IMG/VR virus record: IMGVR_UViG_3300021256_000064
Span: 1-64,000 of that record
Reading direction: 5' to 3' (one strand)
Length of the DNA: 64,000 nt
Source: a virus
Numbering within the stretch: the first letter of the stretch is position 1; each line of letters begins with the position of its first letter. Below the pieces are notes generated by a model that ran no database searches, was not told the DNA's origin, and was given only the letters and a program-made list of their open reading frames with translations. Below, one piece after another: positions 1 through 2,797 of the stretch. The translations under genes were made by a program, and so were the position numbers.

Positions 1-638
1 GATATTTTCCATATATCTCATTTTCTTTTATAAGAGTTCTTTCTCGAATTCCAATTAATCTGTTATCTATGTCATAATGTGGAATAACAATTCCTTCGCT
101 TATTGGATTATAACATATACCTCTTGACTCCATTATATCAAATGTTATACCTTCTTGTTCCCAGGGGAAGATACGGGGATGAGGTAAATATTTTAATATT
201 TTATCATCATAAGTTTTTAATTCTATAATTTGTGGTTGAGATTTTTCTTTATTTCTTTTAAAATTATTAATAATTTTCCAATCTTCATTAGCGTCTTGAT
301 TATCTTCAAAATCAAATATTTCAGCTGTATATCCAAAATATCTAGCTACAAAAGATATTGCTCTAGAAAGAGAAAAGTTCTCAATGCCTGCGGTTTTATT
401 TACTCTTAAAACTAAATCATATATGTCAAATGATGCATCTCCACATCCTGTATAACAATGAAATAAATGAGTATTTTCATAGTAATAAAGTTTATGGCTA
501 TCGCCGCCATGACAGATAGTGCGGGCGGTGAATAATCCATTACCCATAATTGGTTCACCGCCTAATTCGCTAACTAAATCAAATACTTCTTCTATTGATA
601 AGTTTTCTTTTAAAGTGTCTTTATCATATTTGTACATT
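1..638 (-). CDS. DNA primase, DnaG-like zinc-binding domain; partial, runs off the window start
   Basis: Minus-strand frame starting with an ATG at 636-638 reads MYKYDKDTLKENLSIEEVFDLV...ICHGGDSHKLYYYENTHLFHCYTGCGDASFDIYDLV, a CHC2-type primase zinc finger. There is no in-frame stop before the window edge. The ATG overlaps the upstream stop as TAATG. Confidence 0.6.
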
Positions 639-1086
639 ATTCTAATCCTATAGTGTCATAATACTCTTCAGGAATATCTCTGTCTAAAAAGAAATGTCTT
701 AAATCTTGGAGCGCCGATGTATAAGAAAAAGGACTTTGACGTTCCATTTTATTAATTCGCTAACTATCTTTAAAACCAAAATGTCTCCAATGATGTAATC
801 TCATTATTGAATAATATTTTCCAAATATACTGTTATAAACATGTGTGTTTGTAGCAACTCTCATTTCCCACATCATTTTTTCAAACCATACAGTTTCAAT
901 ATAAGGAATGTCAAATAACTACATTATTGGAAAATAAGTCCAAGGCTGACTATCAGAACATCCAATTAATCTACAATCTTTACAATAAATATCTTTCTTG
1001 CCGCCCTCTTTAAAACTAAAAAATCTCTAAATTGGTTTCTATTTTCCGCAATTTAGACAATGCATCTTTATACCTGTTTCTATCAT
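638..1086 (-). CDS. hypothetical CxxC zinc-ribbon protein with 4 in-frame TAG codons; translationally coupled (TAATG) to helicase-side ORF and primase
   Basis: ATG at 1084-1086 and TAA at 638-640. Translation: MIETGIKMHCLNCGK*KPI*RFFSFKEGGKKDIYCKDCRLIGCSDSQPWTYFPIM*LFDIPYIE...KDS*RINKMERQSPFSY...TIGLE. Every asterisk is TAG. Both ends overlap neighbours as TAATG. Confidence 0.5.
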
Positions 1087-1253
1087 TATTTACTCCTTAC
1101 ATATTTTTTATCTCGATATTGTTTTCTAAATATTTTTAATCTTTTACAACTATTACATTTTGTATGATTGTATTTACAATCCCAACAATTATCATTATCC
1201 CACCAAAACCAATTTGGTGGTTGAGGTCTTGGTTTTCTAAATTTTTTTTTCAT
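1086..1253 (-). CDS. small Cys-rich zinc-ribbon protein (55 aa)
   Basis: MKKKFRKPRPQPPNWFWWDNDNCWDCKYNHTKCNSCKRLKIFRKQYRDKKYVRSK. Its ATG overlaps the helicase stop (TAATG) and its TAA overlaps the next ATG (TAATG). Confidence 0.4.
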   Translation of the reverse strand: MKKKFRKPRPQPPNWFWWDNDNCWDCKYNHTKCNSCKRLKIFRKQYRDKKYVRSK

Positions 1254-2797
1254 TAAAATGCACTCGCCTCTATTTTAGGTGTTACTGTAATTTTTAAATC
1301 TTCTATATCTATTAATTCATAATTATAATTAGTTACGAATATGGGATCAATACGACATATTCCTCTATCAGATTTACACCAAAGAAGAATGTCTTTATAT
1401 CTTCCTCGTCTATTTTTATAAACAGAAATTTTTATATCAGGCATTTCAATACCCATAGAATTAACAATATTTTTTAATGCTTCTCTATCATCTTGACTGA
1501 CTTGAAGCATAATCATACCACAGTCAATTTTATCTGCAATAGCTTTCGCTCCACGAAGTAGATTTTGGTCATATTGTTGAGCTGATACATAATCTGCATT
1601 TAACTGAGTTGCAGACATAACGAATACACCATATTGATTACATAAGTCTTTAATTCTTACACTAATCATAAAAAGAATATTATCTTCTCGTAATCCTTTT
1701 ACTCCAGCTTTTGAACTAATTTCACTAAGAATTTTCATACTTGAATGAATATAATCCATAAAGACATATCTTACATCATATTGACGAATACCAAATTTAA
1801 TTGTATTTTCAATATCTTGAAGTGAAAAATCTGGCAATTTTTTGATATATAAAGGACTTTTTGAAAGAATTGCGGCGGCCTCGCTTACTCGTTCCCACTC
1901 GTCTCCGATATATGTATTCTCAAGGATATGATCTTCATTTACTCCAGATAGAAAAGCAATCATCATAGTTTGAATTTCATCTTCTTCCTGCTCTGTAGTA
2001 ATAAATTGAGTTGGTTCACGAGTTCCATTATCTTCCCATTGTTTTGTTTCAAGATTATAAATTTTATTACAGGCAATAGAACAAGCATCCGCAATCATAG
2101 AACGCGTTTTTCCAACTCCAGTAGCCGCAGACCGCAAATAGAATTTTTTTAATCTAGCCCCGCGATGAATGGTATTAACTAATCTTCCATATAAAGGATA
2201 ACCAACTTCAGGATTTTTTCTTAATCTTTCAAGCAAAGCTAATGCACCATCACCAGCTTGAATAATTTCATCTTCTGAGTTATCAACATATTTAGATTTT
2301 ATTTCTTCTATTTTATCATTAATAAGATTAGCAATTTCATTAATAGGAGTATTGTCAAACCATGTTTCTTGGGCTTCTTTCTTTTTTACATCTAAAATAT
2401 TATCCGGATCATATAACCAAGATAAATTCATTCCAACATTTTTATTATACATCCGTAAAAGGGTCATTTTCTTCATACGATTATAATAATAATCAAAAGC
2501 CGCAAGTTGACACATTTGTTTAACATTCTCTAAATATTCAGAACCTTTATTCATTTTATAAATTGCATATTTTTTTGGACGTTGTTCTAAATATTTTTCT
2601 ATATCTTCAATTGAAATTTGTTTTGCTCCTAATTGATGGAGATTATATATTGAACCAAATAAAATTCTATGAAATTCTTGAGGAAAATCTTGTTCATTGA
2701 ATTTATATTTATCTTCTAAATCTAATAAAGATGGATTTATAAAAACGTCTCCTATTACCTGCATATTTGCAGATATATCTACATACTTTGAACTCAT
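1253..2797 (-). CDS. replicative DNA helicase, DnaB-like
   Basis: 514-aa intact ORF. Walker A motif LRSAATGVGKTRSMIAD and a DnaB-like C-terminal RecA fold. TAA stop. No in-frame TAG. Confidence 0.8.
   Translation of the reverse strand: MSSKYVDISANMQVIGDVFINPSLLDLEDKYKFNEQDFPQEFHRILFGSIYNLHQLGAKQISIEDIEKYLEQRPKKYAIYKMNKGSEYLENVKQMCQLAAFDYYYNRMKKMTLLRMYNKNVGMNLSWLYDPDNILDVKKKEAQETWFDNTPINEIANLINDKIEEIKSKYVDNSEDEIIQAGDGALALLERLRKNPEVGYPLYGRLVNTIHRGARLKKFYLRSAATGVGKTRSMIADACSIACNKIYNLETKQWEDNGTREPTQFITTEQEEDEIQTMMIAFLSGVNEDHILENTYIGDEWERVSEAAAILSKSPLYIKKLPDFSLQDIENTIKFGIRQYDVRYVFMDYIHSSMKILSEISSKAGVKGLREDNILFMISVRIKDLCNQYGVFVMSATQLNADYVSAQQYDQNLLRGAKAIADKIDCGMIMLQVSQDDREALKNIVNSMGIEMPDIKISVYKNRRGRYKDILLWCKSDRGICRIDPIFVTNYNYELIDIEDLKITVTPKIEASAF

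Follow-up and report, generated by a model that had tools for sequence, protein, structure and literature searches.

A YonG_N gene with four in-frame TAG codons overlaps the primase start in a probable TAG-recoded, SPbeta-like phage

When an open reading frame (ORF) with in-frame TAG codons ends on the start codon of an essential gene, the question arises whether translation of the essential gene depends on amber suppression. This question is raised by a stretch of 64,000 nucleotides (nt) of the viral record IMGVR_UViG_3300021256_000064 (positions 1-64,000; G+C content 31%), referred to as the window in the following. At its left end a replicative helicase, a small cysteine-containing ORF, a middle ORF with four TAGs and a DNA primase follow each other on the minus strand, neighbours sharing one base as TAATG. 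A first-pass annotation had suggested that coupling to the primase would be lost if ribosomes terminated at the first TAG of the middle ORF, and that translation of the primase may therefore depend on amber suppression. According to our analysis the window most probably represents a siphophage of a Bacillota-type host, which resembles SPbeta and reads TAG as Gln (genetic code 15). The middle ORF is best explained as an accessory gene that is translated like any other and occupies a variable slot at the helicase-primase junction, any coupling to the primase being a by-product. The elements of the locus, with proteins in amino acids (aa) and ribosome-binding sites given as Shine-Dalgarno (SD) sequences, are:

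1253..2797, minus strand: DnaB-like replicative helicase, 514 aa, no TAG, equivalent of SPbeta YorI (Pfam DnaB_C and DnaB; phrog_19)
1086..1253, minus strand: small basic Cys ORF, 55 aa, pattern CxxC-x6-CxxC, no TAG, no family match
637..1086, minus strand: middle ORF, 149 aa, stand-alone YonG_N domain, ends with TAA (phrog_3314; PF27269 on homologs)
2..637, minus strand: N-terminal 211 codons of the DNA primase, CHC2 zinc finger, no TAG, equivalent of SPbeta YorJ (phrog_47, E 2e-16)
1255-1251, minus strand: first TAATG overlap, helicase stop TAA and small ORF ATG
1088-1084, minus strand: second TAATG overlap, small ORF stop and middle ORF ATG
639-635, minus strand: third TAATG overlap, middle ORF stop and primase ATG
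1093..1098, minus strand: SD of the middle ORF, canonical AAGGAG with 6-nt spacing, -7.7 kcal/mol, equal to the gene median
649-646 (-12 to -9 of the primase start), minus strand: weak SD-like AGGA of the primase, anti-SD duplex -4.0 kcal/mol

The three overlaps by which these genes had been described as chained are borne out by the sequence. The third had been placed at 636-640, which reads ATAAT; it exists, and its true site is 635-639. The middle ORF, formerly counted as 148 codons, has 149 sense codons plus TAA. The stop/start spacing is -1 at all three junctions and lies inside the coupling range of -4 to +3 nt (PMC12548453); only one other stop/start spacing is more frequent among prokaryotes (PMC12548453). 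Since seven of the 46 same-strand junctions of the window are -1 overlaps (a further three are -4 overlaps), the run of three in a row, of which roughly 0.15 would be expected per window, is only mildly unusual.

For comparison, 80 IMG/VR loci (L numbers below) were fetched via the helicase, and the presence of the YonG_N ORF was counted over 85 related loci. In the window its TAGs are codons 16, 20, 56 and 109 (1041-1039, 1029-1027, 921-919 and 762-760). The translated middle ORF matches phrog_3314 (E 4.6e-8, residues 7-120), and PF27269 (YonG_N) is precomputed on P0001, which is 99% identical, on a 74% identical homolog and on most homologs; a local Pfam-A scan of the middle ORF gave no match, presumably because the copy used does not contain this model. 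Stand-alone homologs (24 sequences of 88-172 aa, most of about 135-172 aa) could be aligned over the whole length. The ratio of nonsynonymous to synonymous substitutions (dN/dS) is 0.24-0.44 against the orthologs in L048, L015, L022 and L020, and it is similar for the codons past the second, third and fourth TAG. In these comparisons CAA or CAG stands opposite TAG at codons 16, 56, 109 and 117, and none of the 11 loci with a YonG_N ORF shows a frameshift or a TAA or TGA inside it. AlphaFold2 predicts, at a predicted local distance difference test score of 89, a zinc ribbon of four strands and, after it, a helical bundle made up of eight short helices. Because of the homologs, the dN/dS below 1 past the TAGs, the alignment of TAG with Gln codons and the confident structure model, the comparison clearly argues for a real translated gene that is under purifying selection downstream of every TAG. 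The first-pass annotation had named an untranslated middle ORF as a finding that would speak against its proposal; what we found is the opposite. A "gene with four stops" is not anomalous here, and annotation with translation table 15 resolves it.

The structural neighbours of the middle ORF in BFVD are uncharacterised siphovirus proteins. A comparison with the beta-beta-alpha-metal fold gave a match over 54 residues only, with a marginal Z, and in the 24-sequence alignment no HNH catalytic His or Asn is invariant or nearly so within residues 10-40. The columns that are invariant or nearly invariant are C38 and K36, besides hydrophobic and aromatic residues. An HNH nuclease label was considered and, for lack of a conserved catalytic His, not assigned; we take the product to be a putative small accessory factor that binds nucleic acid or protein. 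SPbeta YonG comprises about 306 aa. In the Enterococcus phage VRE9_1 the full-length phrog_3314 gene encodes 387 aa, adjoins genes for a sigma factor and a PhoH-like protein and lies outside the replication module. An exact 14-nt direct repeat, TAGTTAGCGAATTA (minus strand), was detected at 563-576 and 753-766. One copy spans TAG codon 109 of the middle ORF, the other is located within the primase in a different frame; the repeat could be due to chance or could be a recombination scar.

The use of TAG as a sense codon extends far beyond this ORF. In-frame TAGs occur in 25 of the 51 called genes, and the counts per ORF were used as evidence for recoding: TAG-bearing genes contain 200 TAGs in 11,227 codons (about 1.8%), and the TAG-free class contains none in 6,497. 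TAG usage is strictly bimodal, and single genes of the two classes are intermingled along one strand (window 1-27869, minus, and L083). In most TAG-bearing genes TAG accounts for roughly 20-60% of the sum of TAG, CAA and CAG. Free of TAG are the helicase, primase, PolIII-alpha, a PIF1-like helicase, an NAD ligase, both topoisomerase II subunits, an RNA ligase, YorF and YorH. Reading TAG as sense merges fragments to ORFs of 3028 aa (64 TAGs) and 1516 aa (30 TAGs) and to an endolysin of 757 aa (13 TAGs), the longest of which is read as a tape measure by analogy with the tape measures of about 3150 aa in phAss-1 and its relatives. Coding density under alternative stop sets was tried as a further measure and rejected, as it does not discriminate in such AT-rich DNA and scored highest for the removal of TAA.

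Read-through of TAG is likewise required for further members of the replication and recombination module, namely the genes encoding the RecJ-like exonuclease (seven TAGs) and a Sak4-like protein. The Sak4-like (AAA_24) gene (3403-4443, minus strand) has TAGs to be read through as codons 10 and 28, the second of which falls within the Walker A motif (GqPKSGKT); the standard-code ORF, which starts from 4269, would have no P-loop.

Within the window 13 tRNAs were found, and a tRNA(CUA) is not among them; the window ends inside a tRNA gene of the array. Contig L085, which was retrieved via a TAG-free neighbour gene and is 100% identical to window 51588-64000, extends the array:

60397-64000 of the window, minus strand, and on; L085:2834-11572: tRNA array, 24 tRNAs

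The tRNA(CUA), the sole one in the 20 kb examined, is located about 1.2 kb past the end of the window (L085:6715-6788). With TAG being sense genome-wide and tRNA(CUA) encoded in the same genome, the assumption that termination at codon 16 is the normal state proved wrong, and any dependence of the primase applies only before or without suppression. Promoter-like sites of the form TTGATT-N17-TATAAT recur in the tRNA array, one of them upstream of the suppressor; because such sigma70-like sites are scattered through the array, they suggest that it is expressed early, including the suppressor. A gene for a sigma-70-family factor is found in the same region (L085:3067-3918). Genes with 30-64 TAGs would require near-complete suppression per codon, and four TAGs should cost little once the suppressor is active.

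As to the amino acid inserted, relatives show Glu codons at 16, Gln codons at 14, Lys codons at eight and Asp codons at two of 26 TAG positions from five genes. Genuine Gln codons have Glu (40%) and Lys (37%) as partners, and Glu codons have Asp (33%). Since TAG sites seldom show Asp, which is the chief partner of Glu, the partner spectrum of Glu and Lys fits Gln better than Glu, and Gln is favoured. Insertion of Glu, which was raised by the many GAA and GAG partners, is disfavoured by this rarity of Asp. In the phrog_6721 gene (window 5956-7556 region, minus strand; compared, with Sak4 at 3403-4443, against L003-L084) seven of the ten TAG sites are Glu in most relatives. Many Bacillota form Gln-tRNA via GluRS and GatCAB. 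Peptides across TAG positions can be detected by metaproteomics (PMC9523058).

The weak ribosome-binding site ascribed to the primase was confirmed. Anti-SD energies of 57 called genes have a median of -7.7 kcal/mol and a 75th percentile of -5.8, random positions having a median of -1.05, and the primase SD is weaker than that of about 80% of the window genes. A strong independent site, which the first-pass annotation had named as evidence against its proposal, was looked for at the primase and is not present. The AGGA arises from conserved I-G-L codons at the C-terminal end of the middle ORF, and ATAGGATT at the primase SD is common to L015, L048, L022 and L083. An occluding RNA structure was not found at the primase start, so that coupling by RNA unfolding is not indicated: the mean unpaired probability is 0.55 (61st percentile of 46 genes), and the start codon is open in the minimum-free-energy fold. 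As the start region is not occluded, some independent initiation of the primase is likely. A -1 spacing falls within the most efficient coupling range, and moving the upstream stop tens of nt away reduces coupling (PMC12548453). Ribosomes terminating at TAG16 would do so about 400 nt short of the primase start, and those terminating at TAG109 about 120 nt short of it; a shift of the stop by 120-400 nt would be expected to abolish coupling. The junction between middle ORF and primase is the only tight one in the window at which a TAG-bearing gene precedes a TAG-free gene. With few exceptions, primases of the recoded clade start right at the upstream stop and have a weak SD, whereas several standard-code relatives have a strong one. 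Judging from these features, the chances that some coupling between middle ORF and primase exists appear evenly balanced, and a partial, quantitative dependence of primase yield on amber suppression is plausible. The final codons of the small Cys ORF contain a canonical SD that belongs to the middle ORF itself, so that ribosomes need not reach the middle ORF by the chain from the helicase. For the small Cys ORF no well-spaced SD was found (AGAGG at -18 to -14), and the helicase has a strong one (GAGGAGG, -11.9 kcal/mol).

Conservation of the arrangement in related phages had been put forward as a check, and the result is negative: a YonG_N ORF is present in 11 of the 85 related loci. In loci whose helicase has an identity of at least 88%, helicase stop and primase start lie -1 to 3606 nt apart, with differing ORF content, and in most recoded siblings the ORF upstream of the primase is TAG-free. 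In the recoded sibling L016 the TAG-free helicase is joined straight to the primase by TAATG, and the window corresponds to this junction plus an insert of 615 nt with TAATG at both ends. L083 carries a middle ORF 99% identical to that of the window and a DNA methyltransferase in place of the small Cys ORF. Homologs of the small Cys ORF (74-94% identity) occupy varying places of the gap in L018, L019, L024, L029, L037, L048, L067 and L069, and by this distribution the ORF appears as a recurrent movable cassette. At 60-70% helicase identity the loci are mostly standard-code with helicase and primase adjacent; about half have a strong SD, and about half are overlapping or nearly so. In SPbeta and the Enterococcus phages the primase directly follows the helicase. 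The comparison therefore points to the helicase-primase junction as a hypervariable hotspot for cassettes, which ancestrally was a direct stop/start overlap. With respect to suppression, the geometry of the junction (-1 spacing, weak SD) fits the proposed coupling of the primase; as a conserved design the proposal does not hold, as close relatives manage otherwise.

Several further observations concern this slot. Its cassettes (L003-L049, L083, L084; siblings 88-96% identical) include a 138-aa family, a 98-aa ORF, a 189-aa ORF, an N6/N4 methyltransferase, the small Cys ORF and YonG_N, and the first one to three codons of the primase vary with the cassette (MYKY, MSFKY, MNFKY, MNNFKY and others). 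The methyltransferase of L083 (9085-9816) has TAG TAG as codons 241 and 242 immediately before its TAA, and looks like an import from a standard-code phage whose former TAG stop is now read through. Among L050-L066 and L070-L081 the helicase itself ends in TAG in L050-L055, L060-L062, L065 and L074. L067, L069 and L073 represent a second heavily recoded lineage with 32-45 in-frame TAGs in 13.5 kb; as they stand among standard-code loci, recoded and standard-code phages are intermixed in this assemblage.

The explanation that we prefer is as follows. The middle ORF and the small Cys ORF would occupy a cassette slot at the ancestral stop/start overlap of helicase and primase, and the TAGs of the middle ORF would be read by the phage tRNA(CUA) encoded just beyond the window. 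Ribosomes would load at the strong SD of the middle ORF itself, read through the four TAGs and terminate at the TAA overlapping the primase ATG, where some of them would reinitiate and thereby add to the weak initiation that AGGA allows independently. In that case the yield of primase would depend on the efficiency of read-through, roughly on its fourth power. The dependence would be a quantitative side effect of the place at which a recoded cassette has landed, and no conserved switch. Some points weigh against this explanation. With an open primase start, initiation independent of the middle ORF could be enough, and the contribution of coupling could be negligible. Gln is only the probable residue at TAG, as Glu codons stand opposite TAG no less often than Gln codons do. 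Coupling, read-through efficiency and timing are all inferred from sequence.

A more far-reaching interpretation, which we consider unlikely, holds that the TAG-bearing ORF is a selected translational gate: ribosomes would stop at codon 16 until the suppressor accumulates, coupling would be lost, and primase and replication would be held back until the code switch. Likewise it appears improbable to us that amber suppression acts in cis, via translational coupling, as a timer or attenuator on the TAG-free essential primase. The weak SD and -1 spacing of the primase, its position at the sole tight junction of a TAG-bearing with a TAG-free gene and the model of code switching during infection, which gives recoding a temporal role (Borges et al. 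preprint), agree with such a gate, and the overlap of a TAG-bearing YonG_N ORF with the primase is kept across lineages up to a dS of about 0.7 (window, L083/L084, L015, L048). A selected gate should, however, be conserved, and the rarity of YonG_N, the TAG-free ORFs upstream of the primase in most recoded siblings and the coupling to a TAG-free helicase in L016 argue against it. Moreover, the strength of the primase SD shows no obvious rise behind TAG-free upstream ORFs and no obvious drop behind TAG-bearing ones, the start region is open, and the sigma70-like promoters across the suppressor tRNA array suggest early expression. That helicase, primase and PolIII-alpha are strictly TAG-free suggests selection for synthesis independent of suppression, which sits badly with an obligatory dependence on coupling.

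It is somewhat less unlikely, although still doubtful, that the middle ORF is a free-standing mobile cassette of the homing-endonuclease or another selfish kind, derived from an HNH (beta-beta-alpha-Me) nuclease, which would spread from phage to phage at the helicase-primase junction, with the TAATG ends as scars of recombination or insertion; this origin would be compatible with the preferred explanation. The ORF occurs sporadically among siblings of more than 90% identity beside highly conserved essential genes, the 615-nt insert relative to L016 is flanked by TAATG as a 5-bp direct repeat, and a GIY-YIG homing endonuclease gene with nine TAGs lies 5.5 kb upstream. TAATG, however, is the commonest stop/start overlap in AT-rich DNA, so the "repeat" may mean nothing, and neither the short, marginal fold match nor the HNH catalytic positions, at which His and Asn are not conserved, speak for a nuclease. 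Finally, the ORF might be a dead remnant whose TAGs are real stops and which yields a 15-aa peptide only. The standard code breaks its frame four times, and the 64-kb window contains no suppressor tRNA. This reading is nevertheless extremely improbable in view of the purifying selection past every TAG, the exchange of TAG sites with Gln codons in homologs, the intact frames in 11 loci, the genome-wide recoding and the suppressor 1.2 kb past the window in an identical contig.

Comparison with known systems supports the placement of the phage. Among cultured phages it stands closest to SPbeta-like phages of Bacillus and to Enterococcus phages of about 140 kb, with helicases of about 40% protein identity and 66-70% nucleotide identity in patches; the helicase is 40% identical to SPbeta yorI. 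The SPbeta order yorF-yorG(Sak4)-yorH-yorI(DnaB)-yorJ(primase)-yorK(RecJ-like)-yorL(PolIII-alpha) is collinear with the module of the window. SPbeta differs in that it uses the standard code and leaves an empty gap of 15 nt between yorI and yorJ, where the window has two extra small ORFs. A crAss-like identity, guessed from the low G+C content and TAG recoding, was rejected on account of the Enterococcus and SPbeta-like relatives and strong AGGAG SDs; SDs of this type (median -7.7 kcal/mol) fit a Bacillota host.

With the code-15 gut phages (Borges et al., bioRxiv 10.1101/2021.08.26.457843, Nat Microbiol 2022; Peters et al., PMC9523058) the window shares the concentration of TAGs in structural and lysis genes (here 13 in the endolysin and 64 in the putative tape measure), a phage tRNA(CUA), core replication enzymes kept compatible with the standard code and a partial use of the code in about half of the genes. 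In contrast to those phages, recoded genes for YonG_N, GIY-YIG, Sak4, the RecJ-like exonuclease and the endolysin are here interleaved with TAG-free replication genes in one co-directional stretch of the minus strand (27869 to 1), and one recoded gene overlaps a TAG-free essential gene by stop and start. In the text of the Borges et al. preprint the word stems "coupl" and "polar" are absent, and polarity or coupling of recoded genes onto standard-code neighbours is not discussed. The Phassvirus group (phAss-1, OQ749652; PMC10607447) shares reassignment of TAG to Gln, many tRNAs, a tRNA-Sup(CTA) and a tape measure of about 3000-3200 aa. Its genomes comprise about 125-136 kb, the predicted host is Clostridia/Bacillota, and Enterococcus phage EF1 is a standard-code relative (PMC10607447). 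phAss-1 also has a YonG_N-like ORF, which is only 30% identical and stands in a different context, and it carries three suppressor genes, as opposed to one in the 20 kb examined here. Over window 1-4300 phAss-1 gave no match at the nucleotide level; the phage of the window belongs to the same broad assemblage of SPbeta-like phages but to another lineage. Known cases of termination-reinitiation at -1 and -4 overlaps (PMC12548453; B. subtilis comEB-comEC, bioRxiv 10.1101/2020.12.30.424838) resemble the locus in the -1 spacing, in a suboptimal downstream SD inside the upstream coding sequence and in a downstream partner, here the primase, that works with an enzyme of the upstream chain, the helicase. 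Unlike them, the window has no inhibitory structure at the downstream start and is known from sequence alone, and the classical cases do not include reassigned stop codons in the upstream ORF, which the middle ORF has.

Upstream of the helicase lie three further features, which bear on the transcription of the locus:

2794..3306, minus strand: YorH-like ORF, 170 aa, no TAG (phrog_4680, E 7e-19; PF26927 Phage_SPbeta_YorH on an ortholog)
3367-3339, minus strand: perfect sigma70-type promoter, TTGACA-17-TGnTATAAT, 12/12 consensus, extended -10
3394-3353, minus strand: terminator-like hairpin, 17-pair stem followed by a T run (inverted repeat I1)

Hairpin and promoter overlap each other 5' of the YorH-like ORF, whose stop overlaps the helicase start as ATGA. 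The promoter likely starts a transcription unit of yorH, helicase, small ORF, middle ORF and primase; because of the gene overlaps and the promoter and hairpin upstream, these five genes probably form a single unit, as judged by consensus matches. Promoters or terminators internal to the helicase-primase stretch were sought, and matches occurred at chance level only (40 promoter-like sites compared with 36 expected). An Rfam search yielded tRNAs only, and a repeat scan nothing relevant. The primase gene extends past the window start; its ortholog in L083 (10450-11544) has 364 aa and no TAG. At higher coordinates on the minus strand, the GIY-YIG homing-endonuclease-like gene (6612-7556, nine TAGs) encodes a long Q/K-rich N-terminal region and overlaps the phrog_6721 gene (10 TAGs) by ATGA. 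The multidomain endolysin (757 aa, 13 TAGs; 15237-17510, minus) is located amid the strand of DNA metabolism genes, and just upstream of it lies a related ORF of 228 aa with three TAGs (17526-18212).

The middle ORF itself is an ordinary instance of the known code-15 recoding, to which the idea of coupling is a small, testable addition. In an operon with interleaved recoded and standard-code genes, premature termination early in infection could lower the translation of standard-code neighbours; if this is true, polarity or coupling would refine the model of early standard-code and late recoded gene expression. The comparison documents a highly plastic slot in a widespread, uncultured group of SPbeta-like phages; that TAATG overlaps more generally allow gene cassettes to dock without a seam in these phages would be a further, rather unlikely, extension.

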